Assembly: GCA_016715245.1 (NCBI GenBank)
Contig: JADKAS010000006.1
Location: 20,870-84,869, forward strand
Direction of reading: 5' to 3'
Length of the DNA: 64,000 nt
Source of the DNA: Saprospiraceae bacterium
GTDB taxonomy: Bacteria; Bacteroidota; Bacteroidia; Chitinophagales; Saprospiraceae
Shown here: piece after piece, positions 7,243-46,221 of the stretch
Layout of the letters: the number at the start of each line of letters is the position of its first letter
Numbering within the stretch: position 1 is the stretch's first letter
The notes under the pieces: generated by a model
What the model was told of the DNA's origin: nothing
The model's input: only the letters and a program-made list of their open reading frames with translations
Database searches by the model: none
Translations under genes and position numbers: made by a program

Positions 7243-10200
7243 ATGAAAGATCTCATGATTCCCCCAACTTCACGTTATTACATATCGTTTACTAAATGTG
7301 TATTAATGTTAACCTTATTGTCATTTCTGCCTATATCTCAAACAGAAGGACAAAACTGGACCCCAGTGGAAAGTTCAGAAATCACCATCCAAACAGGAAG
7401 TATAGACATTGTACCAAACAAGTTTCAACTTTACAGAGTTAATGATGCAGAAATAAAAGCTATTCTGGATGATGCACCTACCGAAGAAGAAAAAGTCGAT
7501 GGAGATATGTCCATGGGAAAAAATGTAATCATAAAACTTGGGTTACCTGACGGAGAATCAGAAGAATTTATGATTTATGAATATAAAATGATGGAATCCG
7601 GCCTAGCTTCACAATTTCCTGATTTTAAAACTTATTATGGAAATTCCATTTCAAATCCTTTACATCATGTAAGAATTGACTACACAACTCATGGTTTAAG
7701 AGCTATGATTTTATCTCCTGACGGAAGTATTTTTATCGACCACTTCCAGCGAAATGATAAAAACCATAAAATTGTTTATTATAAAAAAGATTTCAGCAAA
7801 CCCATAACCTGGTTTTGTGGTGTAAAGGGGAACGGATTTTCGGAAAGGGATAAAAATAAAATTGATTCAAGGATCGGCGATTGTGGCATCAGACACCAAT
7901 ACCGTCTTGCCATAGCTGCTACAGGTGAATATACAACATTTCACGGAGGTACAGTGGCTTTAGCCATGGCTGCCATTATGACTACCATGAACAGGGTAAA
8001 CGGTGTGTTTGAAAAGGATTGTGCGGTTAGAATGATATTGGTGGCTAATAACAGTTCAATAGTGTATACAAACCCGGCTACAGACCCATATACGAATGGA
8101 GATCCTGATATGATGATAAATCAAAATCAGGCAAACATTGATGCAGTTATTGGAAATGCCAATTACGATATAGGACACGTTTTCGGAACCAATTCGGGTG
8201 GTTTAGCCGGTTTGGGTGTGACATGTGCCGCAGGTGCCAAAGCACTTGGTGTGACAGGTAGTAGCGCACCGATAGGAGACCCATTTGATATTGACTACGT
8301 CGCTCATGAAATAGGACATCAGTTTAACGCCAATCACACACAATATAATGATTGCAACAGAAATAACCCGACTTCCGTTGAACCGGGTAGTGCTTCCACA
8401 ATTATGGGTTACGCAGGTATTTGTCCTCCTGATGTTCAAAGCAACAGCAATGATTATTTCAGTACAGCCAGTTTATATGAAATACGGCCTTTTGTGGTAA
8501 GTAATACCTGTGATGTAGAAGTTGTGGTTACAAATTCAGCGCCTTCTGTTACAGCATTGAGTAATTATTCAATACCAACTTCTACACCATTTGTACTTAC
8601 AGCTTCAGCCAGTGATCCTAATGGTATGTTGACTTATTGTTGGGAACAGATTGATATATTTACAGGTACTCTGAGGACTATGCCTCCGGCTGCTACAAAT
8701 GTGGACGGTCCTATGTTCAGGTCTTTAACTCCTATAGTGAGTCCATTGAGGTATTTCCCCAATTTACCGGACGTTTTAAATAATGTAAATCCAACATGGG
8801 AAGAATTGCCATCTGTTGGAAGGCCTATGAATTTCAGAGTCACCGTAAGAGATAATTTTGCAACTGCAGGTTGTACTGGTGAAGCACAAAATATAGTTAC
8901 TACAGTGGCTGGAACCGGACCTTTTTTGGTTACTTCCCCTAATACTGCAGTTACGTATACAGGAAATTCGTCACAAACTATTACCTGGAATGTGGCCGGC
9001 ACAACAGCAGCACCCGTTAGTTGTGCTAATGTAAATATACTTTTAACCACCGATGGAGGCACAACTTTCACTTCACTGGCGTCTAATACGGCAAATGATG
9101 GTTCTGAAAGTATAACCATTCCAAATATCACTACATCTACTGCAAGAGTCTGGATACAATGTGCCAATAACATATTTTATGATGTTTCTAATGTTAATTT
9201 TACTATTCAGGCAGCTTTACCCCCTTGTGCTGATCTGGTTTTTCCAAGTTGTACGACCGCTGTCAACATTGATTTTGCCGGTTTTGGAGGAGCAGGTTTT
9301 TCTCCTATGCCCAATGCCAATCAACTTTGCTCCAACCACTGGGCATGGACAGGCTGGAGTAATGGTAATTTAGCTTTCGGGGGTACACAAACCACGGCCA
9401 ACACAGATTACACCAGAGGAAATACGCCTGGTGGTGTAACAACAGGCGGTATTTACTCTTTAAATAACGGCGCTTTATATATACAGCCAGGAGGAAGTGA
9501 TTGGGCACCCGGTACAGCAACACTGAGGATTCAAAATACTTCGGGTTCCAACATGACGGATATGATGGTTGGCTATGACCTGCTGGTAAGAAATGATCAG
9601 GCGAGAAGTAATAGTTTTAATTTTTCTTACTCACTGGATGACATAACATATACTCCGGTTGCATCTCTGGATTTTACATCAACTGCAGCAGCAGATGCAA
9701 TGCCAACAATTGTTACTGTTCCAAGGTCAACAACATTAACCGGACTTACCCTTGCCAACAATGCATACATTTATTTCAGATGGTCAGGTGCCGATGTCGG
9801 AGGAAGTGGTTCAAGAGACGAGTTTGGTTTGGACAATCTTTCATTTACACCTGCTTGTAATAATTGCCCCAGCTTTACAAATTTTACGCCTAATAATGTT
9901 ACCGTTGTAAACAGCACATGTTCAGCACCGACTTGTATGCTTATGGGAGGTATAATAAATGCGGCAGTAAATAATTGCCCTTCAGGATCAACATTACAGT
10001 ATTCGACCGACGCCGGAATGACCTGGAGTACAACGGTTCCTGTATATGATCAGGATGGTCCTTCACAAACTGTAATCACCAGATGTAACTGTGATTTGAA
10101 CAATGCTATAAGCAGTAGTCCTAGCAATCCTGTATCCACAAGTCCGGGCACTTGTCCTCCATCATGTAACTGTACATTAAATGGTATGGTTTCTAATGTA

Positions 10201-13200
10201 GCATGTAATAATAGTGAAACAACCAATACTGCAGATGATTTTATCACTTTTGATTTAATTGTGACAGGTGGCGGCGGCAACAGTTCTATGAGTATTACTA
10301 CAACTCCGGGTACCCCTACCCCAAATTCAGCTCTTGCTTATAATGTAACTCATTCCATCACTATGCAGCCTGGTTCTGCGGGAGGTGGAAATATAATATT
10401 GTTGGCAACAGATGATAACAACAGTGATTGTTACACAACCATGATCACAGATCCGGGTACCTGTTCAAACATCGATTTCACTGTCAGTATTTCTGACCCG
10501 TGCGTTTGTAATAATGATGCCACACCAGCTCAGAATGACGGTACTTTTGATGAACAGATAACAGTTTTAGGCCCTGCTGGAGAAACCATTACAGGTACTT
10601 GTACAGGTTGTTCGCCCACTGCTTTGACATTTACTGAAACTTCACCGGGTGTATATGAGAGTAATATATTCACACATATTGATAATTTGGGTTACAATGT
10701 TAGCATAACTGCTGGTAATTCTCAGTTAAATATCGGCAATAAATGCGCTTACCCAAATGTTGCCATAGACCCTATAGGCCCTCTTTGTAATAATGGAAAT
10801 CCTGTTGCTTTGACAGCAGTGATAACCGGAGATGACGGAAGTGGAGGATATACCTGGTCTGGAACAGGTGTCAGTGGAAGTTCATTTGATCCTTTCAATC
10901 TGGCAGCAAACAATTACACCATTACCTTAAATTATGACGGCGTTGACCTAGGAAATGTGTCTCCTGACGGAGGTATAACACCGGCTTTTCCGGGATGTAT
11001 TCAGGTTGCCACAGGTTCAGTGACAGTATTGGATTCTGTTGCCATAACTCAGCCACCTAATCAAACTTTATGTGCGAATACATCAACAAACCCGGTTAAT
11101 TTTATGTCTGCTCCTTCCAATGTAAAATATAGTTGGACGAATGACAATACAGCCATTGGACTCGCAGCAAGCGGGATGGGCAATATCCCATCGTTTATAG
11201 CTACTAATCCCGGAAGCACACCCATTACGGCTAATATTACGGTAACGGCAATGGTGATGGACACTTTTAACTTTACCGGACAAGTTCAACAATATATTGT
11301 TCCTCCAGGTGTCACCTCTATCGAAATTGAGACCTGGGGAGCCCAAGGCGCCAATGGCACCGTTGGTAATGCACCCGGCAATGGTGGATTAGGAGGCTAT
11401 TCAAAAGGCACATTGGCCGTTACACCGGGAGAGACCCTATACCTTAATGTCGGTGGACAAAATGGGTTTAATGGAGGTGGTCCTGCCGGCATCCATATTG
11501 GAACAGGAGCACAAACTTTTCCCGGAAATGGTGGAGGTGGTTCAGACATTCGTCAAGGTGGAGCTGCTTTGGCAAATAGAGTTCTAGTCGCCGCAGGTGG
11601 TGGTGGTGGTGGTGCCGCAAATAATAATAGTTGTACAAGTAATGCACAAAGAAACGGAGCAGTCGGAGGTGGACTTACAGGAGCTGATGGTGCTGGCAGC
11701 GCAAATGAGTGTACTCTTCCAGCAGCAGGTGGAGGAATGGGAGCCAATCAGGTTAATGGTGGAATTGGAGGAACTTTTACCTTTAACTGTAATAACAATA
11801 CACTGCCAGGTTTTGCAGGACTTTTAGGCCAGGGGGGTGCAGGCGGTAACGGAGGAAATAACGGCTGTTTTCCCAACTCGCAAGGTGGTCCCGGCGGCGG
11901 TGGCGGCGGTGGTTATTTCGGCGGCGGCGGCGGCGGTGCAGGTTTTGGCGGCGGCGGTGGTAGTGGATCCGGCGGCGGCGGCGGCGGTGGATCATCTTAC
12001 ATTGGTGGGGTTACCAACGGCATGACTACTTCCGGAATCAAATCCGGAAATGGAAGAATTGTTATTAATCCGGGATTGTACGCAGATTGTATGCCTTCAC
12101 CAAAAACATTTACTATTACCGTAAATCCTTTGCCTGATCCTCCTGTTATTCCTAATATCACCGTTTGTCAGGGTGGTAGTACTTTGATTGTAGCTGGTAC
12201 CATCACAACACCAACAGGTCCACCGGTGTCCGTAACCTATAATTTTGAAGGGGACAATCCGGCCTCAACCACGACTAATAATATGTTTGCAACAGGAAAT
12301 AATGCCGTTATAGGTACAGGTGTCTCCACTTTGACATTCCCTCAAGGATGCGGTTCACTGGATGCGATGTCAGCAAACAACTGGTCTCAACCTACTGAAG
12401 TTGCCGCGGTGGCTAACAATGACTATTTTGAATTTGTGGTCAACAACACTTCAGCAGTAAACACCCTGGTGATTAATGGGTTTTCATTTTCTGGAAGAAT
12501 TTCAACAACCGGGCCAACCAATTGGGCATTGTACCAAGGTACTACAGCTATAGGATTTTTTGGCACTACGACATCGGCGTCAACCCCTACTCCATGTGGT
12601 AATTATACTACAAATACATTAAACTTAGTCGTCGCTCCAGCTTCAAATGCAATAATAAGAATTTATGCCTGGGGTAATACACCAGCACAGAGTACAGGAA
12701 CGTTCAGAATTGACGATGTAGTGGTTTCCGGTACTTCCAACCCTCCTTCCAACAATTTCAAATTTTATAATGTAGACCCAACCGGAGGTATGGCCACCCC
12801 AATATTTACTGGATCTCAATATGACCCAATGACTACTCCGGCTACCTCACCTCAATCCATTTGGGTTACAGAATGTTCTGCAGCCGGATGTGAAAGTCTG
12901 CCTACACGGGTGATTGTAACTGTATCCGCAAATCCAACCATAACCATACCTACCATCAACCCCTTATGCGCACCCAATTTTTTCAATATAAACAACTTCA
13001 ATTTTAATCCAAATCCACCAGGAGGAACTTTTTCATACCATAATACACTTTCAGATGCCCAAATGGATATCAACCCAATTACAAGCGGGTTAAATAACAT
13101 AAATACAACAAGGACAATTTATGTAAGATATGAACTGGCAAACAATTGTTTTACTGTGGGTACACTGCAATTTATTGTGCATCCCATGCCTCCACCACCT

Positions 13201-16200
13201 GTTGTTCCAGCCACGGTAAGTACATGCGCAGGAGAAAGCCCACTGATAAAAGTTAATATAGATAATTACCCTGTTGAATATTTATGGAATTTTGAGGGCA
13301 ACATAACTGGAAATGGTATTTCTTCCCAACCTACCATTGCAGGAAATGGTCCGGTGCAAAGTGCCGGTGCTGGTCTGAATAGTGTTGGTTTTCAAGTAGC
13401 CGGATCCGGTTGTGGTGATGCCATAACTTCTGCAGGTTATGAAGCGGGAAATATCACCCTTGCTGCAGCCGTGGCATCTCAGGAGTATTTTGAATTCTGT
13501 GTAGGCTCAGCTTTGCCAGGTATTATATATGCAGGAGTAAATGGTATTACCATCAGGCATAGAGCTTCCGGCACAGGACCTATAAACTGGGCAGTGGTTG
13601 CCTCCAACAATCTAACGACGCCTCTGGCTTCCGGTATAGTAGGTACTGGTTGTACACTTCATACAGGAGCTTTTGCTTTAAATACGGCTACTTGTTACAG
13701 AGTGTATTACTGGGGAGCAACCAGCTTAAGTGGCACCCTGAGAATCGACGAATTCAGAGTCGCTGCTAATTACCAAAATAACGCCACTTACCGGTTTTAT
13801 ACCGTTAATCCAACAACAAATCCAAATGCGACACCAGTGTTTACAGGTGTTTGCTATCAAACAAACCTGACCGTTCAAAATGGTCCAACCACCTATTGGG
13901 TTACATGTCAGAATCCGGTTACAGGTTGTGTGAGTAATCCGTCAAATGTCATAGCGCAGGTATTTCCTGACCCTGTCGTAACTGTTTTTAATTCATGCGC
14001 TGGTGGAAGTACCGTTACATTTCAGGTATCCGGCGCTACAAGTGGCACATGGGGTGTTTCCGGAGGTGGTACGATCAACCCCACCACAGGTGTGTTTACA
14101 CCCACCACAGCTGGATGTTTTACAGCCACATACTTAGCCCCGGGAAATTGTGATGATACCAAAAGTTTTGTAGTCTTTCCTTCTGCCCCTGCGGCGCCAA
14201 TGATAAGCAACACTTGTAACACATCATTCGTAGTTCCTGTGCTTCAACCCTTTGGAGGATTTACTGCACAGTATAGCTTTAATGGTGGAAATACCTGGGG
14301 TACTTCCAATACTTCACCAACAACACCTGGTTGTTATCAGGTAGTTACAAGATATATTTTAACCAATACCTGCGGAACAACTTTAGCAGGGTCTGTTGGT
14401 CCGGCTGCTTGTCAACAAAGCGGTATCAGAGAAGTTGTTATATTTCCTGCAGCTCCACCGGCACCGGTTATTTCAAATACATGTAATACTGCCATTACCA
14501 TACCTGTTTTAACAGCTGTTACCGGATTCAGACCGGAATATAGTTTTGACGGAGGTATGACATGGTCAACCAACAATGTATCTTCCACGACCCCAGGATG
14601 TTATGCGACAAGAAGCAGGTATGTACTCGCAGCAGCATGTGGAACTCCTTATCCGGTAGGAACTACGGCGCCTCCGGCTTGTCTGCAAAGTCCTGTTACC
14701 AATGCCGTTATTTATCCGGCAGCCCCGGTTATTACAATGCCTCCGGCAACTTGTATGACAAACTTTGTATTGCCAACAGTGACTCCGGTGCCTAACTTTA
14801 CCATAGAATACAGCATTAATGGAAGTTCGTTTACTTCAACCCCAATGAGTACTATGGCTCCGGGCTGTTATACCATTATAACAAGATATGTATTAACCAC
14901 TACATGCGGAGCAACACTAGCAGGATCACCAGGGCCTGTGGCTTGTGCGCAAAGCAATACAGTGATTGCCAATGTTTTACCTATACCAGATGTTTTGGAT
15001 CAACCGGACATACTCGTGTGTAATCTTGAACTTATAAGCCCTCTACCTTTTATAAGTACTGTAGCAGTACCGACCTGTCTGGGAACGAGTATAGAATATT
15101 TTTGGACAAATAGTAATCCTGATATTGGATTACCTGCTTCCGGCATGGGTAATATTCCACCTTTTACGGCTCAAAACCCAGGTTTAGCAATTATAACCGT
15201 CACACCAAGGATTACCTTAAATGGAGTTATCTGTGAAGGTACATCCATTTCATTCAATATTGTTGTTCATCAGCCTATCGCTTTGGCGTGTAATAACGGA
15301 CTCAACATTAGTGTTGACAGAAATTGTGGTATCAAGGCCTTTGTAGACATGTTTTTAGAAGGAACTTACAATGACTATTTTTATAGTGTTCGGTTTTTTG
15401 CTTACACTGGCGTTGAAATTGATATTAACGACATACATTTATTTTTGGGTACACGACTTCAATATGAGATAATTGACAATTGTAATGGAAACAGATGTTG
15501 GGGATATGTAACTTTTGAAGACAAATACCCACCGGTTATAATTTGCCCGGATTTCGAAGTAAATTGTATAGAGGAACCAAATCTTTACCTTCCAATCAAT
15601 TCACCTGATTTTATTGGTTATCCTGAAATTCAGGACAACTGTAGTGGAGCAGAAGAAAACCTTAACATGTCTTATCTGGAAACAGGAAATACTTGTAATA
15701 AGGTAATTATCAGAAGATGGCAGACTTCTGACCAAAGTGGCAACCTCTCTAATGAGTGTTTACAAACGATTAGGGTGAGGCCATTATCATTTTCGGAAAT
15801 ATTTATTCCAAATCCATTGGTTTTTCTTGAGTGTAAAACAGCTACAGACCCTGCATCTATCGTTGCTGCAACAGGTGATGTAAGAGACGGATATGCATTT
15901 GTATTGATTGACGGAGAGCCTCTTCCTTTGACAGGTCAGGTTTGTAACATCGTTGGATCTTATACTGACTTACCAATTGAAGCATGTGGACCTCACTGCC
16001 ACGGTAATATAAAAGTAATCAGAACATGGCAATTTATTGACTGGTGTCAGGGAATCGTGTCTCAGCCGGTTACTCAGTTGATCAAATCTGCTGACCTTGA
16101 GGCTCCAACTTTCATTCTGAAAGATACCATCGTAAGTACTTCACCTTGGTATTGTGCTGCTGATTTTGATCTTCCAAGACCTTGGGAACTTCATGACAAT

Positions 16201-19200
16201 TGTGATATCAACCCTACATATTATGTAAGTGGTCCTGGTATTGTTACGATCACAGGAAATCAAGTTGACGGATACAGAGCAAAAGGTGCTCCTAAAGGAC
16301 AACATATTTTCTGTTATACAGCTGAAGACTGTTGTGGTAATATTTCTACTCAGTGTATGATTGTTACCGTAGTTGACAAAACACCTCCGGTACCTTCCAC
16401 CAAACAAAATATCGTTCTTGGTTTAGTATCAGGTGGACCTGGTCAGGATGAAGGCAATGCTAAATTGTTTACTCACCACGTGGACAACTATTCTTATGAT
16501 ATGTGTTCAGCGGTAAGACTTGAAATCAGAAGACCTGCAGGTGCGCCTCAGTGTAACAATGATGGTAGAATTGACCCTGTTACAGGAAAGCCTTACAACA
16601 ACAACGTAACTTTCAACGACAACAAACCTAGATTACATCAGGATGACAACATTGATGATACAGATAATGGAGAGTTTGTTAAATTCTGTTGTGAGGATTT
16701 AAAAACAGGTGTTGACATCGACGGTGACGGCGAAGTTAATATCGGATACCATGAAGTTATTTTGAGAGTATGGGATGATGGAGATATGAATGCTCAATGG
16801 GGAAGTGCAGGTGACAACTACAACGAAAGCTGGGCTTACGTTAAAGTTGAAGACAAAGCTCCACCGGTAATTCAGTGTCCACCAAACATGACTATTCACT
16901 GTGACTGGGCTATTACGTACAGTTCTGACTTAGGTAGTGGTGCACAATCTACAGAAGGCGTTGACTTTACAAAAACAGGTCTACCTGTTGCATACGGAAC
17001 TTGTGGTCCACGTCCAATCACATTCAGAGACAATACAGGTCAGTTGAACCAGTGTAAATTAGGAAACGTAACAAGAGATTTCTTTGTAACGCCTGCAAAA
17101 GCTGGAGTAGATCCACCTTCTTGCAGACAAGTCATCACTATTTTACCAAGTACTTCTACGCAACCATGGATAGTCACTCCACCGAGTGCAGCTCCTGTGG
17201 CTATTACATGCGCTGACCCTACTGCTACAGAGATCAAAGACAACGGGCCTAAGTGGGTCAACGGACCTTGTGATGTCATCGGAGAAAACATCAAAGTTCA
17301 CAAATTTTTATTTGAAGATGGTGTTTGTATAAAATGGAGAGTTGAGTATAACTATATTAATTGGTGTTATCCTGAAGGTCATCCTGACCATGCTAGAGGA
17401 CCATACTTCAAAGACTTTATGTTCTTCGACAATAATAAGCCTGTAATCGATAATTGTGATCCTTTAATGTTTGGTGTAGATGCCAACTGCGAACACAGAT
17501 TGGTATTGACTAACAAAGCCACAGACACAGGTGGATGTAATGGTGATAACGGATGGTTGAAATGGCAGGTATTCATCGACTTATGGGCTGATGGATCAGA
17601 TGACTGGGAATTCTCAAGTTTCTTACCTGTAGGCAACGACGAGGCCAATGCAGCTAACGGAAACCTTGCTGCTATCAGAGATGATAACAATAACGGAATT
17701 CCTGATATCTATGTAGCTCCAACGGCCGAAAATGGCATTATTACGATTACCGTTCCTGAAATCATTGTTGGCAAAATGAGTAACCACAAAGTAAGCTGGA
17801 AAGTAACAGACGGATGTCACAACCACACTACTTGTCACCAACCAGTAATGGTAGTGGACAAAAAACCACCTACCCCTTACTGTCTGAGCTTAAGCACAGC
17901 ATTGATGGCTGATCCTGACGGAACAGGACCATTGAGACCAATGGTAGAATTGTGGGCTATTGACTTCAACGTAGGATCATTTGACAACTGTACACCACAG
18001 GAAGACTTGTTGTTTACATTCAATAACTGGGCACCTCAGGTTACAGATACTATTATCGATGGAAGAACAGTAAATATTGACGTTCCTCACTATTTTGATG
18101 TAAATGGTGCAGTATGGCCATATCCTACTACTAATGCAGATGTATTGTCAAGATATAATAGAGGTGATTTACAATTGTGGTTACCTAATCTTAGAAGTTC
18201 TGCAAGAGTTTGGACTGAGTCTGTCATGGCAGGAGAAAGAAAAATAGAACTTCCCGTAATGATGAGCGTATGGGATAAAAAATTCGAAGTTGATTTCTGT
18301 ATGGTTAATTTGACAATCATTTGTAATACATGTCCAATTGAAGGCAGTTCCAGAATTAGTGGTACCGTCACTACCGAGGAAGGTAAAGGAGTGGCTAATG
18401 TTGAAATAAGATTGACAACAACCGGAAATCCTTCCAACACCTCAGAAATGACCGATGTAAATGGTTATTATTCTATTCAGAATATTCAGGCTTCCTCAGG
18501 ATTACTTTATCCTTATAAGAATACAGAACATGGAAACGGAGTCAGCACCCTGGATCTTGTGCTCATTCAAAGGCATATATTGGGCATTCAGAAATTTGAA
18601 AGTCCTTATAAAATTATGGCAGCAGATGTCAATAATGATACTAAAATCAATACCGTTGATTTGGTAGAACTCAGAAAAGTTATTTTGGGCGCTTCACCTG
18701 TTTTCACCAATAAGAGCTGGAGATTTGTAGATGCCAAGGTTACCATGGATATGAATAGCGTCTTTCCTTTCTATGAGACGGTGAATGTCAATATCAACAC
18801 GGCAACGATGGACAATATGAATTATATGGCTGTTAAGATAGGTGATGTAAACGGAAGTGCATCTACAGATGTAATCAATGCACAGTCAGAAACCAGAACA
18901 GCTTCAAGACTTGATTTGACAGCAGCTGAAAGAAGCGTAGAAGCCGGTGAAACATTTGAAATAGCAGTTACGGCAGCTAACTTTAATGAAATCTTCGGAT
19001 TCCAGTATACAATGAACCTACACGGAGCGAACTTCGTAGATGTAGTTTCTGGTGCTATTGAAGTAACTGAATCAAATGTTGGCGTAATCTCAAGTGATGT
19101 AATCACGATGAGTTATGCAGCAAGAGAAGCAGTTTCTCTAAGAGCTGATGAGGTATTGTTCACCATCGTATTGAAAGCTGACAAAGCTGGTCAATTTAGT

Positions 19201-19569
19201 GACATGATCCAACTTAACTCTAATGTAACAAGAGCTGAGTCTTATGTTGGTTCTACTATCAAAGTTCAGAATATCGGATTGACAGTAGGTTCTGTTGATG
19301 CAGCAGCTCAGATTGAGTTGTTCCAAAACGAACCAAACCCATTCAAAGCAACAACAAATGTAAACTTCTTCATGCCTGAAGCAGACAATGCAAGATTGAC
19401 TGTTTACGATGTAACTGGTCGAGTAATCAACGTAAGAAACATCAATGCAGTACAAGGTTTGAATACAGAAGCATACACAAGAGAGCAATTGGGTACTTCC
19501 GGTATGTTGTATTACAAATTAGAAAGTGGTGATTTCACTGCTACTAAGAAAATGATCATCATCGAATAA
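7243..19569 (+). CDS. giant (4108 aa) T9SS-secreted multidomain protein with N-terminal metzincin/reprolysin-like zinc protease
   Basis: Single uninterrupted ORF. Order of parts: signal peptide; HEIGHQFNANH zinc site; glycine-rich domain; Ig-like/PKD-like and HYR-like repeats; carboxypeptidase-regulatory-like domain; dockerin-like and cohesin-like modules; C-terminal LFQNEPNPFKATTNVNFFMP...LTVYDVTGRVI...KKMIIIE (T9SS type-A CTD pattern). Confidence 0.9.
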   Translation: MKDLMIPPTSRYYISFTKCVLMLTLLSFLPISQTEGQNWTPVESSEITIQTGSIDIVPNKFQLYRVNDAEIKAILDDAPTEEEKVDGDMSMGKNVIIKLGLPDGESEEFMIYEYKMMESGLASQFPDFKTYYGNSISNPLHHVRIDYTTHGLRAMILSPDGSIFIDHFQRNDKNHKIVYYKKDFSKPITWFCGVKGNGFSERDKNKIDSRIGDCGIRHQYRLAIAATGEYTTFHGGTVALAMAAIMTTMNRVNGVFEKDCAVRMILVANNSSIVYTNPATDPYTNGDPDMMINQNQANIDAVIGNANYDIGHVFGTNSGGLAGLGVTCAAGAKALGVTGSSAPIGDPFDIDYVAHEIGHQFNANHTQYNDCNRNNPTSVEPGSASTIMGYAGICPPDVQSNSNDYFSTASLYEIRPFVVSNTCDVEVVVTNSAPSVTALSNYSIPTSTPFVLTASASDPNGMLTYCWEQIDIFTGTLRTMPPAATNVDGPMFRSLTPIVSPLRYFPNLPDVLNNVNPTWEELPSVGRPMNFRVTVRDNFATAGCTGEAQNIVTTVAGTGPFLVTSPNTAVTYTGNSSQTITWNVAGTTAAPVSCANVNILLTTDGGTTFTSLASNTANDGSESITIPNITTSTARVWIQCANNIFYDVSNVNFTIQAALPPCADLVFPSCTTAVNIDFAGFGGAGFSPMPNANQLCSNHWAWTGWSNGNLAFGGTQTTANTDYTRGNTPGGVTTGGIYSLNNGALYIQPGGSDWAPGTATLRIQNTSGSNMTDMMVGYDLLVRNDQARSNSFNFSYSLDDITYTPVASLDFTSTAAADAMPTIVTVPRSTTLTGLTLANNAYIYFRWSGADVGGSGSRDEFGLDNLSFTPACNNCPSFTNFTPNNVTVVNSTCSAPTCMLMGGIINAAVNNCPSGSTLQYSTDAGMTWSTTVPVYDQDGPSQTVITRCNCDLNNAISSSPSNPVSTSPGTCPPSCNCTLNGMVSNVACNNSETTNTADDFITFDLIVTGGGGNSSMSITTTPGTPTPNSALAYNVTHSITMQPGSAGGGNIILLATDDNNSDCYTTMITDPGTCSNIDFTVSISDPCVCNNDATPAQNDGTFDEQITVLGPAGETITGTCTGCSPTALTFTETSPGVYESNIFTHIDNLGYNVSITAGNSQLNIGNKCAYPNVAIDPIGPLCNNGNPVALTAVITGDDGSGGYTWSGTGVSGSSFDPFNLAANNYTITLNYDGVDLGNVSPDGGITPAFPGCIQVATGSVTVLDSVAITQPPNQTLCANTSTNPVNFMSAPSNVKYSWTNDNTAIGLAASGMGNIPSFIATNPGSTPITANITVTAMVMDTFNFTGQVQQYIVPPGVTSIEIETWGAQGANGTVGNAPGNGGLGGYSKGTLAVTPGETLYLNVGGQNGFNGGGPAGIHIGTGAQTFPGNGGGGSDIRQGGAALANRVLVAAGGGGGGAANNNSCTSNAQRNGAVGGGLTGADGAGSANECTLPAAGGGMGANQVNGGIGGTFTFNCNNNTLPGFAGLLGQGGAGGNGGNNGCFPNSQGGPGGGGGGGYFGGGGGGAGFGGGGGSGSGGGGGGGSSYIGGVTNGMTTSGIKSGNGRIVINPGLYADCMPSPKTFTITVNPLPDPPVIPNITVCQGGSTLIVAGTITTPTGPPVSVTYNFEGDNPASTTTNNMFATGNNAVIGTGVSTLTFPQGCGSLDAMSANNWSQPTEVAAVANNDYFEFVVNNTSAVNTLVINGFSFSGRISTTGPTNWALYQGTTAIGFFGTTTSASTPTPCGNYTTNTLNLVVAPASNAIIRIYAWGNTPAQSTGTFRIDDVVVSGTSNPPSNNFKFYNVDPTGGMATPIFTGSQYDPMTTPATSPQSIWVTECSAAGCESLPTRVIVTVSANPTITIPTINPLCAPNFFNINNFNFNPNPPGGTFSYHNTLSDAQMDINPITSGLNNINTTRTIYVRYELANNCFTVGTLQFIVHPMPPPPVVPATVSTCAGESPLIKVNIDNYPVEYLWNFEGNITGNGISSQPTIAGNGPVQSAGAGLNSVGFQVAGSGCGDAITSAGYEAGNITLAAAVASQEYFEFCVGSALPGIIYAGVNGITIRHRASGTGPINWAVVASNNLTTPLASGIVGTGCTLHTGAFALNTATCYRVYYWGATSLSGTLRIDEFRVAANYQNNATYRFYTVNPTTNPNATPVFTGVCYQTNLTVQNGPTTYWVTCQNPVTGCVSNPSNVIAQVFPDPVVTVFNSCAGGSTVTFQVSGATSGTWGVSGGGTINPTTGVFTPTTAGCFTATYLAPGNCDDTKSFVVFPSAPAAPMISNTCNTSFVVPVLQPFGGFTAQYSFNGGNTWGTSNTSPTTPGCYQVVTRYILTNTCGTTLAGSVGPAACQQSGIREVVIFPAAPPAPVISNTCNTAITIPVLTAVTGFRPEYSFDGGMTWSTNNVSSTTPGCYATRSRYVLAAACGTPYPVGTTAPPACLQSPVTNAVIYPAAPVITMPPATCMTNFVLPTVTPVPNFTIEYSINGSSFTSTPMSTMAPGCYTIITRYVLTTTCGATLAGSPGPVACAQSNTVIANVLPIPDVLDQPDILVCNLELISPLPFISTVAVPTCLGTSIEYFWTNSNPDIGLPASGMGNIPPFTAQNPGLAIITVTPRITLNGVICEGTSISFNIVVHQPIALACNNGLNISVDRNCGIKAFVDMFLEGTYNDYFYSVRFFAYTGVEIDINDIHLFLGTRLQYEIIDNCNGNRCWGYVTFEDKYPPVIICPDFEVNCIEEPNLYLPINSPDFIGYPEIQDNCSGAEENLNMSYLETGNTCNKVIIRRWQTSDQSGNLSNECLQTIRVRPLSFSEIFIPNPLVFLECKTATDPASIVAATGDVRDGYAFVLIDGEPLPLTGQVCNIVGSYTDLPIEACGPHCHGNIKVIRTWQFIDWCQGIVSQPVTQLIKSADLEAPTFILKDTIVSTSPWYCAADFDLPRPWELHDNCDINPTYYVSGPGIVTITGNQVDGYRAKGAPKGQHIFCYTAEDCCGNISTQCMIVTVVDKTPPVPSTKQNIVLGLVSGGPGQDEGNAKLFTHHVDNYSYDMCSAVRLEIRRPAGAPQCNNDGRIDPVTGKPYNNNVTFNDNKPRLHQDDNIDDTDNGEFVKFCCEDLKTGVDIDGDGEVNIGYHEVILRVWDDGDMNAQWGSAGDNYNESWAYVKVEDKAPPVIQCPPNMTIHCDWAITYSSDLGSGAQSTEGVDFTKTGLPVAYGTCGPRPITFRDNTGQLNQCKLGNVTRDFFVTPAKAGVDPPSCRQVITILPSTSTQPWIVTPPSAAPVAITCADPTATEIKDNGPKWVNGPCDVIGENIKVHKFLFEDGVCIKWRVEYNYINWCYPEGHPDHARGPYFKDFMFFDNNKPVIDNCDPLMFGVDANCEHRLVLTNKATDTGGCNGDNGWLKWQVFIDLWADGSDDWEFSSFLPVGNDEANAANGNLAAIRDDNNNGIPDIYVAPTAENGIITITVPEIIVGKMSNHKVSWKVTDGCHNHTTCHQPVMVVDKKPPTPYCLSLSTALMADPDGTGPLRPMVELWAIDFNVGSFDNCTPQEDLLFTFNNWAPQVTDTIIDGRTVNIDVPHYFDVNGAVWPYPTTNADVLSRYNRGDLQLWLPNLRSSARVWTESVMAGERKIELPVMMSVWDKKFEVDFCMVNLTIICNTCPIEGSSRISGTVTTEEGKGVANVEIRLTTTGNPSNTSEMTDVNGYYSIQNIQASSGLLYPYKNTEHGNGVSTLDLVLIQRHILGIQKFESPYKIMAADVNNDTKINTVDLVELRKVILGASPVFTNKSWRFVDAKVTMDMNSVFPFYETVNVNINTATMDNMNYMAVKIGDVNGSASTDVINAQSETRTASRLDLTAAERSVEAGETFEIAVTAANFNEIFGFQYTMNLHGANFVDVVSGAIEVTESNVGVISSDVITMSYAAREAVSLRADEVLFTIVLKADKAGQFSDMIQLNSNVTRAESYVGSTIKVQNIGLTVGSVDAAAQIELFQNEPNPFKATTNVNFFMPEADNARLTVYDVTGRVINVRNINAVQGLNTEAYTREQLGTSGMLYYKLESGDFTATKKMIIIE
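8305..8337 (+). other. zinc-binding motif HEIGHQFNANH of the metzincin-like catalytic domain
   Basis: cat gaa ata gga cat cag ttt aac gcc aat cac, in frame with ATG 7243. HExxHxxxxxH spacing as in metzincins, with N where G is usual. GSASTIMGYAG follows about 20 residues later as a Met-turn candidate. Confidence 0.75.
11263..12075 (+). other. glycine-rich domain (resembles the bacterial/ALK-type Gly_rich family)
   Basis: TFNFTGQVQQYIVPPGVTSIEIETWGAQGANG...GGLGGYSKGTLAVTPGETLYLNVGGQNGFNGGG...GNGGGGSDIRQGG...RVLVAAGGGGGGAANN...GGGGGGGYFGGGGGGAGFGGGGGSGSGGGGGGGSSYIGG...SGNGRIVINPG. Confidence 0.6.
11884..11990 (+). repeat. GGC/GGT codon low-complexity tract (poly-Gly coding); (GGT)6 also at 11596-11613
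   Basis: ggtggtcccggcggcggtggcggcggtggt...ggcggcggcggcggcggtgca...ggcggcggcggtggtagtggatccggcggcggcggcggcggtgg. Includes a pure (GGC)5 at 11971-11985. Confidence 0.9.
14170..14970 (+). repeat. three tandem ~89-aa Cys-containing repeats (period 267-270 nt) inside giant gene 1
   Basis: FPSAPAAPMISNTCNTSFVVPVL...YSFNGGNTWGTSN..TTPGCYQVVTRYILTNTCGTTLAG..GPAACQQS; then FPAAPPAPVISNTCNTAITIPVL...YSFDGGMTWSTNN..TTPGCYATRSRYVLAAACGT...PPACLQS; then YPAAPVITMPPATCMTNFVLPTV...YSINGSSFTSTP...APGCYTIITRYVLTTTCGATLAG..GPVACAQS. Confidence 0.85.
18535..18690 (+). other. dockerin-like module
   Basis: NGVSTLDLVLIQRHILGIQKFESPYKIMAADVNNDTKINTVDLVELRKVILG. The second half fits the dockerin Ca-loop/helix pattern DVNxDxKINxxDLxxLxKxILG. 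Confidence 0.6.
18898..19300 (+). other. cohesin-like module
   Basis: TASRLDLTAAERSVEAGETFEIAVTAANFNEIFGFQYTMNLHGANFVDVVSGAIEVTESNVGVISSDVITMSYAA...VLFTIVLKADKAG. The pattern of a strand, then G-FQ-Y/F, then a strand resembles cohesin domains often found just before T9SS CTDs. Confidence 0.5.
19309..19566 (+). other. T9SS type-A C-terminal sorting domain
   Basis: QIELFQNEPNPFKATTNVNFFMPEADNARLTVYDVTGRVINVRNINAVQGLNTEAYTREQLGTSGMLYYKLESGDFTATKKMIIIE. Confidence 0.8.
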
Positions 19570-19594
19570 AGTTTTGACTGACAACCATAGTAAA

Positions 19595-19632
19595 AGAAGC
19601 CCTGGTGGAAATTCCACCAGGGCTTCTTTTTT
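19595..19632 (+). terminator. rho-independent terminator of giant gene 1
   Basis: agaagccctggtgg (19595-19608) / loop aaatt / ccaccagggcttct (19614-19627), a perfect 14-bp stem, followed by ttttt. Confidence 0.85.
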
Positions 19633-19918
19633 AATATTGATTACCAAATATAAACTTTGGACACCACATATCACTACATCAAAATAGATATATTTTAAAA
19701 TAATTGCAACTCAAGTAATTTAAATAACATTGATTTACATATTTAATATAAATATATATAATTATAGTTTATTTTATTTGGTAGACTTAAACTATTTGTG
19801 CACCTTTACACGATTTTTACAATACCGTCGTTTCGGTAATGGTCAATATATTAAGTAAGTCTACAACTTTTGATGTTCTATATATAAATAGGCTTTTTTA
19901 ATATTTTACCAAAAGACC

Positions 19919-22900
19919 ATGAGCGTAAAACCTAATTCCCCAAAATTTAGCTTTTTAGTAATAAGCTTTTTTCTTTTTTGTTGCAGTAGTTTATTTGCAC
20001 AGTTCACTTCGAAATCAGAATTGGCAAGACAAATTTTAATATCCAGGGCAGATGAGTTTAATCTGGATATAACCTCCCTTAATCAAATGCGTCTTTCCTC
20101 AGAAACGTACAGTAGATTAAGTAAATTGAATCATGTTTATTTTGAACAGCATATTGAAGAAATTCCGGTTTATAATGCCATTCTCAATGCGCATATCACT
20201 TCAAATGATGAGTTGCTCACAATAGGCAACAGGTTTTATTCCAATGCTTTAACAAATAAATCCCTGGGGTTGCCTCTCATTCCTCAACTTGAAGCTATAT
20301 CAAGAGTTTGTAATCATTTGGGATATTCATTTAATGGCAACCTTACCATAGTACAAAACATCGGAGGTCCAACTAAAAAGATTGTGTTTGACAAAGGAAA
20401 TATATCTCTTGAAAACATTCCTGTCAATCTGGTCTGGCAACCAATTTCTGAAAATTATCTGGTTTTAGCATGGAATGTCTCTATTTATGAAGCAAGTGCT
20501 CAAAACTGGTGGAATGTCAGAATTGATGCCGTTACAGGTGAAATACTTGACCAAAATAATTGGGTGGTTCAATGTAATTTTGACATGGATTGTGGTACAG
20601 ATCACAAATCTCTTGAAAACAAGAATACTAAGCATCATTTCATTCCAAAATCTGTTCAAAACCACAATACCCAGGATATTATTGTGATCCAGGGTACAGT
20701 TGTAGTGAGCCCCATGGATGGCAGTTCCTATCGGGTTTATCCGGAACCTATAGAAAGCCCCAACCATACCTTACCACTTCCCCCGGTAGATGGAAGAACT
20801 ACAGTTAATGAACCGGCTGATGCTACAGCTTCGCCATTCGGCTGGCATGATACCAACGGAGCTATAGGTGCAGAATTTACTACTACCCAGGGAAATAATG
20901 TACACGCGTATACTGACACCAATTTTGACAATATGCCAGATCCGGGATCCAGCCCCGATGGTGGAAGTGGACTTGACTTTCTTTTTCCTTTAGACCTTAC
21001 CATGGCCCCAAGTACTTATAGACCTGCTGCAGTTACCAATTTATTTTACTGGAATAATTTTATCCATGATTTTGCCTACGCTTTTGGATTTGATGAGGTC
21101 AGTGGTAATTTTCAGCAAAACAATTATGGAAACGGTGGATTAGGCGCAGATTATGTGCTGGCTGAAGCTCAGGATGGTTCCGGAACCAATAATGCAAATT
21201 TTGCTACTCCGCCGGATGGAAACAGGCCTCGTATGCAAATGTTCATTGGAACAAATCCGACACCGGATGTTGATGGTGATTTTGACAATGGCGTAATAGC
21301 CCATGAATACGCCCACGGTATTTCCAACAGATTTACTGGTGGTCCAGCCAATACTAGTTGCCTTGGAAATCAGGAACAAATGGGAGAAGGATGGAGTGAC
21401 TTTTATGCATTAATTACGACAATAGAACCCGGAGACTTAGGTACTGATTCAAGAGGTATAGGAACGTATTTATTTGGTCAGCCGCCAAATGGTCCTGGTA
21501 TCAGACCAACCCCTATTCTACCAATATGGCTATTAACACAGCAACTTATGACAATATAAAAACACTATCTATACCACATGGTGTAGGTTACGTCTGGTGC
21601 GGTATGATTTGGGATTTATTATGGAAAATGGTTGATGTTCATGGAAATCCGGCTGGTATTAACATTGCTATAAACCTTGTAAATGAAGGGATGAGATTAC
21701 AACCGTGCAGTCCTGGCTTTGTTGACGGAAGAAACGCCATTTTAGCTGCTGACGTTGCTATGTACGGAGGTGCTAACCGTTGTTACATTTGGGAGGTTTT
21801 TGCAAGAAGAGGGCTTGGTTTCAGTGCCAATCAGGGACTTTCAACAAGCAGAAGTGATGGAACCCAAGCTTTTGACCTACCACCATTTTGTATTTTTGAT
21901 GTAACCCCTGAAGTTGTTTCCATTTGCAAACCAAATAGTGCTCAATATACTGTATCTAATGGAACAGCTGAAACATTAACTTTATCTGCAACAGGAAACC
22001 CACCAGGCACAGTTGTATCGTTTCTTACTAACCCTGTCCCAACTAACGGGACCAGTATAATGACAATTGGAAATACAGCAGCCGCAGCCAATGGAACCTA
22101 TATAATAACTGTGACAGGAACTGGTATTTCAAATACTGTTACTGCAATGGTAACCTTAATTATCCAAAGTAATGTTCCTGGTGCACCAACATTGGTCACA
22201 CCTCTTAATATGGCTATGAATCAAATCAATCCTTTGTTGACATGGAGCCCTCAACCAGAATCAGAAACTTATAGCATTGAGGTAGCTACCGATCTGGGAT
22301 TTTCCAATATTATTGCAAGTGCAACGGGTTTAACGGTAAATATATTCCAGACAAATAATTTAATGTCAAATACTACATATTACTGGCGTGTGCGGGGTGT
22401 AAATGGATGCGGAACCGGTTCATATTCACCTATATTTTCATTTACAACAGCAAACATTGCCTGTATTACAATTGCCAGCACTGATGTACCTAAAACAATT
22501 GCGCCCGATCCCCCAAGTACAACATTATCAATATTGACATTCCCTAATGTTTGTGGAATTATTACAGATGTAAATTTACGAAATCTTAATATTACGCATT
22601 CATTTGTTGGTGATCTGAATATCGAATTAATCAGTCCTATGGGCACTGTTGTCCGGGTTTTCCAACAAGCTTGTGGTGGTTCAGATAATATCTTAATTAA
22701 TTATGACGACGAAGCAGCTTCGCCAACGATTCCTTGTCCACCAACAAACAATGGATTTTACATTCCATTTGCTGCTTTATCAGCTTTCGACGGGCAATCG
22801 CCTTCGGGAGTCTGGACTTTGCGTATTCTTGATGAAGCTCCTTTAGATGGTGGAACTTTAAATGCCTGGAGCCTGGAACTGTGTTATGCAAATACATTTA

Positions 22901-25900
22901 CTCCAGCTCCTATTGTTGTTACAGATAATTCCGGTAATACAGCAAATGATGGTATTTTGTGTCAGGGAGGAACAGCCACACTTACTGCTTCCGGAGGCAC
23001 TTCATACCTATGGAGCACAAATGAAACTACACCAGCGATTTCTGTCAACACCTCAGGCATGTATTCAGTTACAATAACAAGCGGAAGCTGTTCAGGTAGT
23101 GTATCAACCACCATAGTTGTCAATCCGAATCCAACGATTTCGGGACCGACATCAGTCGCTGTGGGGGCAAGTATAAATATTATGGGATCGGGTACCCCAG
23201 CCATGACAAATCCTTATATCTCATCCAACACTTTAATTGCTACAGTAAATAATGTGGGTTTAGTAACAGGCATAGCCCCAGGAATGACAGTAATTACATA
23301 TACAGATATTAATGGTTGTACTTCAACAAGAACAATAACAGTTTCTGCAATTACAACCTCACTTCCACCAAACGGAACTGCAAATGTTGCATGTCCGGCA
23401 TTGGCAATAGCTCCAACTCCACCAATAAATATTACGCCAATAAATCAAACTTGTCCTTTGGTACAACCTGTAGGCCCTACCATCACAAACAACCCTAATC
23501 CAATTAGTTGTGAAGGCACAAGGGAGTATGCTTATACTTACACCGATTGTGCAAATAATTTTATAGGAACATGGACGTTTACTTACACAATTGAGCGCCA
23601 ACCATTTACTTTACCAGCCAATGGCGCTGCAACTGTGGCTTGTCCTGCCCTGGCAGTTGCTCCTACTCTACCGACTGTTACAAGTAATTGTGGTGAAGTG
23701 TTAACTCCGGCTGCTCCTGTAGTTACGAATGTCCCAAATCCTTTGACTTGTGAAGGAACCAGAACCTATGCTTATACTTACACAGACTGTGAAGGCAATA
23801 CGGCTGTATGGAGTTTCGTTTATACTGTCGAAAGATCACCTTTCACAGTACCTGCAAATGGTAATGCAACAGTGGCATGTCCGGCTTTAGCAGTGACTCC
23901 TACTCCACCGGCAGTTTCAAGCAATTGTGGTGAGGTTATCACACCTACCGGCCCGGTAATTACCAATACTCCTAACCCTTTGACTTGTGAAGGAACCAGA
24001 ACCTATGCTTATACTTACACAGACTGTGAAGGCAACTTTTCTGTCTGGAGTTTTGTATATACCATAGAACGAAATCCATTTACAGTACCTGCAAACGGAA
24101 CTGCAACTGTTGCCTGTCCTGCTTTGGCAGTTGCTCCAACCCCACCAGTAGTTTTGAGTAATTGTGGAGAGACTTTGACGCCAACAAGTCCGGTAATTAC
24201 GAATGTTCCAAACCCAATCACTTGTGAAGGAACCAGAACCTATGCTTATACTTACACAGACTGTGAAGGCAAACTGCTGTACTGGAAGTTTCGTTTATAC
24301 TGTCGAAAGATTACCTTTCACTGTACCTGTAAAATGGTAATGCATCAGTGGCATGTCCGGCTTTAGCAGTGACTCCTACTCCACCGGCAGTTACAAGCAA
24401 TTGTGGTGAGGTTTTAATACCAACAGGCCCGGTAATTACCAATACTCCCAACCCTCTGACTTGTGAAGGCACAATCACCTATTCATATACATTTACGGAT
24501 TGTGAAGGTAATACTGCTGCCTGGAATTTTATTTATACGGTGGAAAGATTACCTTTTACTGTTCCCGCAAATGGAGCATCAATTATTTGCGGACTCGCGC
24601 AGGCAACTCAACCGGTTCCTCCTGTAATTACCAGTAATTGTGGTGAGATTCTAACTCCATCTGGACCAGTTAGAACTGATGTAATAAACAATGGTGGAGG
24701 AACCCGTACGTATACCTGGAACTACACTGACTGCGAAGGCAACACAGCTGGATGGAATTATGTATATACTATAAACCCGATTCCTGTTATTACCCTTCAG
24801 CCTGAAGACCAATCAATATGTATTGGTAGCGACGCCACATTTGTGGTATCTGCAACCGCTCCAGCACCGGCTACGCTTGGTTACCAATGGCAAAGATTTT
24901 CAGGTGGAGTTTGGAATGACATCCCTGGTGAAACAAATGCAACCCTGATTATCACAAATGTTGCAGCTGTGGATAATGAATCTTTATTCAGATGCATAGT
25001 GAGTAGTATAAACCTTAATGGTGTCAACTGCCCGGTAATATCTGATGAAGCGGTACTTTTTGTTCATATCCCGGTTGCACTCGCCTGTAATGACCATGTA
25101 CGCATCAGTGTAGATCAGGAATGTTCAATAAAATCTTATGTTGATATGTTTTTAGAAGGAACATATAATTTTAACTTTTACAGCGTTACCTTTAAAACAG
25201 ATGGTGGTGTCGAAATCGACATAAACGACATTCATTTATTTTTGAATCAAAGATTGAGACACGAAATTATTGATATATGCAATGGTAATAGATGCTGGGG
25301 TTATGTAACTTTCGAGGACAAATACCCGCCTGTTTTAAGTTGTCCTGATGTTACCATTTCATGTTTGGAGCAGGATCGATTATTCCTTCCTATTGACAAC
25401 CCTGATTTTATTGGCTTACCTGAATTGTCAGAAAATTGTGGAGATGCTTTGGAAAATCTCCATTACAACTATCTGGAAACAGGAAATACTTGTAATAAGG
25501 TAATTATCAGAAGGTGGCAGACGTCTGACCAAAGTGGCAACCTCTCCAATGAGTGTGTTCAAACTGTCACCGTTAATCCTCTTTCTTTCTCTGATGTATT
25601 CGTTCCAAATCCATTGGTTTTTCTTGAGTGTAAAACAGCTACAGACCCTGCATCTATCGTTGCTGCAACGGGTGATGTAAGAGACGGATATGCATTTGTA
25701 TTGATTGACGGAGAGCCTCTTCCTTTGACAGGTCAGGTTTGTAATATCGTTGGATCTTATACTGACTTACCAATTGAAGCATGTGGACCTCACTGTCATG
25801 GTAATATCAAAGTAATCAGAACATGGCAATTTATTGACTGGTGTCTGGGAATCGTTTCCGCTCCGGTTACTCAGTTGATCAAGTCTGCTGACCTTGAGGC

Positions 25901-29384: not shown

Positions 29385-29409
29385 AGTTTTGACTGACAAC
29401 CATAGCAAA

Positions 29410-29447
29410 AGAAGCCCTGTTGGAAATTCCACCAGGGCTTCTTTTTT
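29410..29447 (+). terminator. rho-independent terminator of giant gene 2 (copy of 19595-19632)
   Basis: agaagccctgttgg / aaatt / ccaccagggcttct followed by ttttt. One stem mismatch relative to copy A (g to t at 29420). Confidence 0.8.
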
Positions 29448-29556
29448 AATATTAAAAACTAATTTTTTACAACATTTAACAATAAAATTCACAAATCAAA
29501 ACCTTGAAAAATATCCAACATATAGAAAAAAATATATTTTATACTGTAAATTTTTA

Positions 29557-46195: not shown

Positions 46196-46203
46196 TATTT
46201 TTG
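46196..46203 (+). promoter_or_regulatory. Bacteroidota -7 box (TATTTTTG)
   Basis: Exact TAnnTTTG match 19 nt upstream of ATG 46222. Confidence 0.35.
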
Positions 46204-46221
46204 TTAATTAATTATATTATT

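Follow-up and report, generated by a model that had tools for sequence, protein, structure and literature searches.

Concerted evolution, probably by ectopic gene conversion, in the shared tails of type IX secretion system proteases of a Saprospiraceae bacterium, with an embedded dockerin-like cassette

How do two adjacent genes with different catalytic heads come to share a tail in which nearly identical and strongly diverged blocks alternate? The question is raised by the window analyzed here, a stretch of 64,000 nucleotides from contig JADKAS010000006.1 of a Saprospiraceae bacterium (GCA_016715245.1). In this window, gene 1 (7243-19569) and gene 2 (19919-29384), both on the + strand, code for giant proteases carried as cargo of the type IX secretion system (T9SS), and both end in the same direct repeat of 4.4 kb. 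Copy A of the repeat (15219-19638) is the tail of gene 1 and copy B (25016-29453) is the tail of gene 2, the two being in register and 9.8 kb apart; all the parts of the repeat described below are on the + strand. We refer to the genes as paralogues A and B, and to a third one, found on another contig, as paralogue C. It is very probable that the tails of A, B and C have evolved in concert by repeated ectopic gene conversion. This reading is supported by the four-fold degenerate sites, by the grouping of the tails across species, by the alternation among A, B and C along the tail, and by the failure of an explanation based on assembly artefacts.

The two copies are joined by two strong BLASTN blocks, 15408-18335 versus 25205-28135 (91.1%, 2949 columns) and 18829-19638 versus 28644-29453 (97.65% over 810 nt, with 19 mismatches and 0 gaps), and only one weak match (75.9%) is found between these blocks. 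In the global alignment, made with MAFFT --auto, the offset from A to B passes through 9797, 9800, 9797 and 9800 and then reaches 9815. Within the coding sequence, the indels have lengths divisible by 3 or occur as mutually compensating pairs, and the frame is kept. Both alignments agree with the coordinates and offsets given to the 4.4-kb repeat in an initial annotation of this DNA, and the peptides quoted in it are also correct. Identity between the copies is very uneven. It is 63% in 15268-15669, in agreement with the diverged first ~400 nt of that annotation, 93% overall in 15670-18335, 53% in the 493 nt of 18336-18828, and 97.7% in 18829-19569. Three short patches that had been described as diverged (16545-16600, 17080-17130 and 18211-18250) show 48-70% identity. 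There are 18 identical runs of at least 60 nt, the longest being the difference-free stretch of 232 nt at 16705-16936 (partner 26505-26736), which had been noticed before, is seen again in our alignment and is also identical in paralogue C. For 15808-16060, the near identity that had been reported is maintained, with an exact count of 7 substitutions instead of about six. The 3' homogenised block of copy A (18829-19638, ungapped) contains a beta-rich region, the T9SS C-terminal domain (CTD) with its Por_Secre_tail match, the stop codon (19567-19569) and an intrinsic terminator hairpin (19592-19630), so the repeat goes beyond the coding sequence until its end at 19638/29453. The corresponding block of copy B (28644-29453) has its stop codon at 29382-29384 and a terminator-like hairpin with one stem mismatch.

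Paralogue C encodes 2071 aa with a PKD-like head, and it is 96.3% identical to copy B over 25575-29384, including the diverged segment that corresponds to 18336-18828. In the long-read metagenome-assembled genome (MAG) of a sister strain, C is on a contig separate from A and B. About nine MAGs of this species have C among their genes. The MAG of the window also encodes C, as seen at the protein level, and the comparisons of C at the DNA level were made with the sister strain's copy. In a map of A, B and C from one long-read genome, the odd member is B at 16545-16593 and 16955-17221, C at 17349-17396, and A at 17632-17655 and over 17970-18828. The number of runs of these labels is 52, where 102 +/- 5.8 would be expected (P<1e-4), and every possible pairing (A=B, A=C or B=C) shows the highest identity somewhere along the tail. 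Since the labels fall into blocks, the diverged patches between A and B are mostly tracts that one of the copies shares with C at 98-100%. The initial annotation had proposed a mosaic produced by gene conversion within a tandem pair; conversion is retained here, while the framing with just two copies has to be replaced by a family of at least three members, one of them dispersed.

A related species, JADKBV (L002), was found by scanning the GTDB species representatives. Its gene-1 orthologue, M36 head and second tail are in the same order as in the window. The two tails of this species (A2 and B2) are 91.9% identical overall and 92-98% identical in core windows, and they are 72-78% identical overall to the window copies, with 70-88% in core sliding windows. 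Within the window, the core of copy A (Aw) and the core of copy B (Bw) are 93-100% identical. A third paralogue of JADKBV, on a separate contig, is 91-99% identical to A2 and B2. When the four sequences are compared, 509 of the 583 informative sites group the paralogues, 48 group the orthologues and 26 support neither grouping. Nearly all the informative sites in 15900-18150 are of the first kind, and those that group the orthologues concentrate at 15150-15800 and 18150-18300. At the 5' edge, Aw is closer to A2 (0.66-0.78) than to Bw (0.59-0.71), and in 15450-15600 there are 14 orthology sites versus 5 concerted ones. Given the conserved gene order and this orthologue-grouping edge, the duplication is older than the split of the species, and the tails have evolved in concert since then. 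The comparison of orthologous loci in relatives, which the initial annotation had put forward as a check, showed that the paralogous tails of the related species are more alike than the orthologous ones. In a further species pair, A9 and C8, the cores are 97-100% identical and the cassettes described next remain of two different types.

For the large diverged window at 18336-18828, the divergence and the near identity that follows it through the stop codon and terminator are confirmed. The segment did not simply escape homogenisation: it is a discrete dockerin cassette, whose B and C versions are 98-100% alike. The cassette of copy A (A type, 18336-18828) has a CarboxypepD_reg-like start, a type I dockerin-like domain and a variable linker, as indicated by Pfam and PDB matches. 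The dockerin-like cassette of copy B (28136-28643) is of the other type, named C type after paralogue C. The two types are old and about 50% identical to each other. Pfam PF00404 (Dockerin_1) matches the A cassette with 35.0 bits and the B cassette with 31.9 bits (cut-off 22.9), CarboxypepD_reg matches the A cassette with 33.2 bits (cut-off 32.3), and dockerin chains of the PDB match the cassette at E values from 1e-3 to 1e-2. A duplicated F-hand is present, DNGVSTLDLVLIQRHILG ... DVNNDxKINxxDLVELRKVILG. The dockerin core is conserved in both types, and the flanking ~65 and ~50 residues differ.

The distribution of the types follows the loci in part. At locus A, the window and A9 have the A type (0.86-0.96 nucleotide identity) and A2 has a looser version of it, whereas the Aw cassette has an identity of 0.51-0.76 with the B and C cassettes. 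The A9 cassette carries an assembly frameshift, and its comparison with Aw is by nucleotide identity. At locus C, the C type is found in C1/Cl, C8 and C2. The cassettes of Bw and C8, which belong to different species, are 94% identical in aa, with a synonymous divergence (dS) of 0.65 and a nonsynonymous divergence (dN) of 0.03, and these values indicate that strong purifying selection acts on the cassette. Locus B has the C type in the species of the window (Bw versus Cl, dS 0.02, with a shared tract at 17970-18848) and the A type in a related species (A2-B2, 0.89-0.93; B3 is nearer to Aw than to Bw). From this difference, at least one replacement of the whole cassette has occurred at locus B.

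We suggest that the tails within one genome repeatedly overwrite each other through non-reciprocal homologous recombination, presumably dependent on RecA, with the enzymology presumed as well. At least three participants would be involved: A with an M12B head, B with an M36 head 9.8 kb downstream, and C with a PKD-like head on the other contig. The conversion tracts would range from tens to several hundreds of nt. Homogenisation stops at the 5' edge, around 15660-15800, and is interrupted by the dockerin cassette of ~500 nt. Across species, locus A has kept the A type and locus C the C type, with locus B switching at least one time, probably by a tract with its start in the homologous flanks that brought the whole cassette along. 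Selection presumably keeps the cassettes distinct.

The mosaic could also have been built locus by locus, with DNA from other strains or species replacing the alleles and no exchange inside the genome. In Porphyromonas gingivalis, surface proteins are known to undergo such allelic exchange (PMC5266723). The surface-protein genes of the window are 3-10 times more divergent between strains than the housekeeping genes downstream (0.7-2.4% versus 0.25%), and some patches are private to one paralogue, with Bw in 16955-17221 being nearer to the other species than A or C is. However, import alone cannot make three loci 98-100% identical in alternating blocks while the orthologues differ by 12-30%. 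We regard it as a quite unlikely source of the mosaic, and it would at most add variation on top of intragenomic conversion.

Paralogues more alike than orthologues would also result if each lineage had recently duplicated its tail on its own, with ordinary divergence and no ongoing conversion afterwards. This is highly unlikely: the two species agree in gene order and in the architecture of the fusion, orthologues group together at the 5' edge of the repeat, and the type of the cassette is specific to the locus across species at A and C. Furthermore, A=B, A=C and B=C are each the closest pair in different blocks, which is impossible under a single history of duplication.

The quality of the assembly has to be considered as well, since the copies could in truth be more different, or uniformly different, with cross-mapped reads or a collapsed or chimeric consensus having created the identical blocks. 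The source MAGs appear, by accession and naming style, to belong to an activated-sludge series obtained from R9.4.1 Nanopore reads with CANU, Racon and Medaka and a final Illumina Racon polish (PMC8012365). The window does have consensus indel errors, with private 1-nt indels at 21509, 24331 and 33665, a split TonB receptor and a truncated TilS. Even so, the artefact is extremely improbable as the origin of the mosaic. The MAGs of two sister strains are 99.4% (L001) and 99.1% (L012) identical to the window, and in the three independent assemblies of this species the columns that differ between A and B number 447, 443 and 444, with 410 of them present in every assembly. The sequences of paralogue C in a long-read MAG and in a short-read contig obtained independently agree at 99.97%. 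Polishing cannot turn a divergence of ~20-30% between orthologues into an identity of 92-100% between paralogues in three species. With the shared columns, the independent C contig and the cross-species pattern, polishing is ruled out as the source of the mosaic, so the homogenisation by polishing that the initial annotation had named as its possible undoing fails. The short-read contig of paralogue C (L007, from Logan) had also been considered as a possible k-mer chimera of A, B and C, and this was discarded by its 99.97% identity to the long-read MAG contig.

Synonymous sites give the same picture. According to the initial annotation, uniform divergence between A and B would speak against conversion, and divergence is not uniform. 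At the 501 four-fold degenerate sites compared, it is 68% in the old 5' edge (15219-15660, homologous to B only) and 6.6% in the homogenised core (15801-18150), then 66% in 18336-18828 and 4.5% in 18829-19566. The differences at these sites are clustered, with 82 runs versus 127 +/- 5.7 in 10,000 permutations (P<1e-4). By the Nei-Gojobori method, dS reaches saturation in two segments, 15240-15600 and 18350-18810, and has values of ~0-0.1 elsewhere. Since four-fold divergence is ten-fold apart between blocks, constraint on the protein cannot explain the mosaic. Uneven purifying selection on the protein alone, without recombination, is next to impossible as an explanation, because it fits the coincidence of the diverged window with a domain unit whose best-conserved part is the dockerin core, but neither the contrast of 4.5-6.6% with 66-68% nor a 5' edge that is constrained (55-85% aa identity) yet old, with saturated dS.

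Some points weigh against gene conversion as we describe it. The evidence consists of MAG consensus sequences, and neither a conversion event nor a recombinant molecule was observed directly. Short reads cross-mapped during the Illumina Racon polish could have changed single sites that are specific to one paralogue. The sequences A9 and C8 are from different metagenome samples, and we infer that they can be treated as one genome from the similar divergence of their flanks. The switch of the cassette at locus B is not polarised. Among the three strains, clustered changes carrying paralogue alleles are found in copy B of L012 (B12, 17059-17201), in its copy A (A12, 18024-18068) and in Aw (17924-17925, matching C). 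Polarised with other species, the 26 allele swaps between strains divide into 13 that are old, under a loose criterion, and 13 that are ambiguous, and a minor allele equal to the paralogue allele can also arise by plain mutation on the other branch. These swaps are only suggestive of ongoing conversion.

RecA-mediated recombination needs a few tens of bp, and the 18 identical runs between A and B exceed that. A deletion or duplication of 9.8 kb by unequal crossing-over, in frame, is plausible because the identical runs are long and the homologous codons are in register. The deletion was not seen, with both genes kept in 4/4 genomes (three strains and the related species), although no search aimed at its junction was made.

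Two other genes touch on the dockerin cassette. Located 3' of paralogue C (15005-19843 of L010, from the sister strain; also 17316-21875 of L008), a gene encodes a 1612-aa T9SS protein containing HYR, C-type lectin, dockerin and cohesin domains, whose tail has ~30% aa identity with the shared tail. By its cohesin and its position, this protein is a candidate partner of the dockerin cassettes. In the window, an AhpC/TSA-type redoxin (46201-47250, 349 aa) has at its C-terminus another type I dockerin-like module (36 bits), which shares 42% identity with the dockerin found in the tail cassette. Such a fusion is unusual, and further proteins of the organism may be tagged with dockerins. As a speculation to which we give a small chance, the cassette may work as a swappable address label. 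The A and C types would bind different cohesin-bearing T9SS surface proteins, one of which could be the protein beside paralogue C, selection would keep the types distinct within the homogenised stalk, and conversion initiated in the identical flanks would now and then re-target a whole protease, here the M36 one, between scaffolds. If true, this would be a cellulosome-like display of proteases, reprogrammable by recombination, in protein-degrading Saprospiraceae.

Gene 1 encodes a T9SS cargo protein of 4108 aa, recognized by its open reading frame (ORF), Pfam matches, zinc motif and TIGR04183. It is formed by an M12B reprolysin-like head, an ALK_LTK glycine-rich domain, a long stalk, the dockerin and a T9SS type A sorting domain. 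Pfam Reprolysin_2 to Reprolysin_5 match at aa 218-415 (E values from 2e-30 to 5e-22), and the zinc motif HExxHxxxxxH is present as HEIGHQFNANH at aa 355. The head region at 10021-13000, with ALK_LTK and GGC-rich repeats (11884-11992), differs by 2.1% between strains, versus 0.25% in the flanking housekeeping genes. The Por_Secre_tail domain (Pfam PF18962) is found at aa 4031-4106 of gene 1 and at aa 1601-1676 of the third ORF of gene 2, and it scores 31.2 bits (cut-off 27) when the tail segment is scanned alone. The TIGR04183 sorting domain reaches 37.6 bits (cut-off 23). The N-termini of both proteases look hydrophobic by eye. T9SS genes have been reported from Saprospiraceae MAGs (PMC9304909).

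In the shared module, the order is an immunoglobulin (Ig)/cadherin-like stalk, the cassette with its CarboxypepD_reg-like and type I dockerin-like parts, a beta-rich region and the T9SS sorting domain, with the terminator after it. The homogenised core corresponds to an Ig/cadherin-like string of beta-sandwiches, HYR-like and cysteine-rich. Pfam and NCBIfam scans gave no match in the tail core at 16501-18333, and 15796-18333 is almost without Pfam matches; a PDB sequence search of the tail returned only the dockerin. The AlphaFold2 model of the tail core (15796-18333) is a string of beta-sandwich domains with a mean pLDDT of 84.6. Its best PDB matches by Foldseek are cadherin and protocadherin ectodomains, titin and the grappling-hook protein GhpA of Aureispira, with low TM-scores (0.1-0.2) because the string is flexible and multi-domain, and only the class of the domains is claimed from them. 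In this model, the tail core would be an extended stalk. In homology searches, many T9SS proteins of Saprospiraceae with differing heads use the shared tail.

Gene 2 is predicted, from Pfam matches, an HEYAH motif and ORF repair, to be an M36 fungalysin-type T9SS metalloprotease of ~3154 aa, consisting of an FTP/PepSY propeptide, the M36 domain, a P-domain, Big_2, an HYR_4C array and the shared tail. The initial annotation treated it as a gene with the repeat as its tail, which is correct, and as one ORF, which does not hold in the window, where it is divided into three ORFs (19919-21559, 21526-24366 and 24348-29384). ORFs of the window are identical to MBK8819100.1 and MBK8819101.1 from a Saprospiraceae MAG. 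The M36 match (PF02128) is split by an indel at 21509, with profile positions 1-253 in the first ORF (E 8e-91) and 258-368 in the second, and the HExxH motif is the HEYAH at aa 462. The indels are C4 instead of C5 at 21509, a cluster at 24272-24284 in which a T is missing and CT is added, and one surplus A at 24331. C5 is found at 21509 in the two sister strains, L012 is free of the indel cluster at 24272-24331, and private indels occur at other places in every strain. With four small edits based on a sister strain, a single ORF of 3154 codons results, the second break being the whole cluster at 24272-24331. In the related species, the reading frame of the gene-2 orthologue stays open over 3219 codons or more. 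The breaks are likely to be errors of the Nanopore consensus and not a sign of pseudogenization. Elsewhere in the window, a TonB-dependent receptor (959-3417) appears as two overlapping ORFs, one with the Plug and the other with the beta-barrel, the TilS ORF (5002-5934, - strand) is truncated and does not contain the N-terminal part of its PP-loop domain, and a SurA-like gene has an extra A at 33665, private to the window when compared with both sister strains. We take these three cases as further signs of indel errors in the assembly.

Directly upstream of copy B, gene 2 contains a tandem array of 237-nt units that encode HYR_4C domains (23600-24574, + strand). It has ~4.1 copies, 76% identical to one another, and differences between strains are more concentrated here than anywhere else, with 52 of the 151 differences from L001 lying within 24000-24500. 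Divergence from L012 is 2.4% at the array versus 0.25% in the downstream genes. The cause could be either recombination within the array or difficulty in its assembly. Immediately downstream of gene 2 there are genes for PPIC-type peptidyl-prolyl isomerases (PPIases) or SurA-like proteins, at 29600-31549 and 32420-33760, separated by an ORF of 277 aa (31551-32384) without a recorded domain match. The sister strains keep this arrangement, and in a related species, too, the first PPIase gene lies 3' of the tail. These neighbours are possible chaperones for the protease cargo. The MAG JALHOZ bin.200, assembled from short reads of a related species, is interrupted within the shared tail from both sides (L005 and L006): one contig ends 307 codons into tail A, and the other one starts 738 codons into the tail before the PPIase gene.

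Taken as a whole, the locus is a clear example of concerted evolution, of an ordinary kind and without a new mechanism, and the swappable dockerin cassette is its most interesting detail. The comparison across species shows that, in these giant, modular genes for T9SS cargo from uncultured Bacteroidota, homogenisation acts on the shared module of stalk and anchor, with the heads and the cassette staying distinct. Such tails can break or mislead short-read assemblies, blur the assignment of orthology and inflate the apparent variation between strains. The locus points to one display stalk being re-used for different proteases in presumed protein-hydrolysing bacteria of activated sludge, and it offers a testable hypothesis of surface organization mediated by dockerins.

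Among known systems, the closest in organization are rgpA, kgp and hagA of P. gingivalis, T9SS proteases and adhesins with near-identical C-terminal adhesin modules that recombine, have exchangeable terminal variants and, through repeats that are identical inside one gene and from gene to gene, confound assembly, and for which gene conversion has been invoked (PMC5266723). The two cases share their phylum and their secretion route, with different catalytic heads on a shared non-catalytic tail that ends in a T9SS CTD. Unlike the gingipains, whose heads are C25 cysteine proteases, the heads here are predicted zinc metalloproteases (M12B and M36), the module in common is a stalk of Ig/cadherin-like type that includes a dockerin, two of the genes are tandem neighbours, and the evidence is comparative alone. 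No Cleaved_Adhesin or HagA repeat was matched in the tail by the Pfam and NCBIfam scans, and the likeness to the gingipain tails would be one of organization and evolution and not of family membership.

Concerted evolution by RecA-dependent gene conversion is well known for tufA/tufB of Salmonella and for rRNA operons. As in those genes, the paralogues within a genome are more alike than the orthologues, synonymous sites are homogenised, and both distant and adjacent loci appear to exchange. Different from tufA/tufB, only the tail is homogenised here and not the catalytic heads, and an embedded heterologous cassette persists in two types. Cassette-type conversion is found in pilE/pilS of Neisseria, vlsE of Borrelia and babA/babB of Helicobacter, and gene conversion among outer-membrane protein genes of H. 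pylori is reportedly the subject of a review. The locus resembles these systems in having a variable segment within conserved flanks that seems to be moved between paralogous loci in a non-reciprocal way. It departs from them in that all three copies look like expressed full-length genes, with no silent donors, and no sign of a programmed or high-frequency switch is seen in this environmental organism, which is under no host immune pressure.

Compared with cellulosomes, the host here is a Gram-negative member of Bacteroidota, the cargo would be proteases and not glycoside hydrolases, and the pairing with a cohesin partner is putative. What it has in common with cohesin-dockerin systems is the type I dockerin-like module within the cassette and the predicted cohesin-bearing T9SS protein encoded beside paralogue C.

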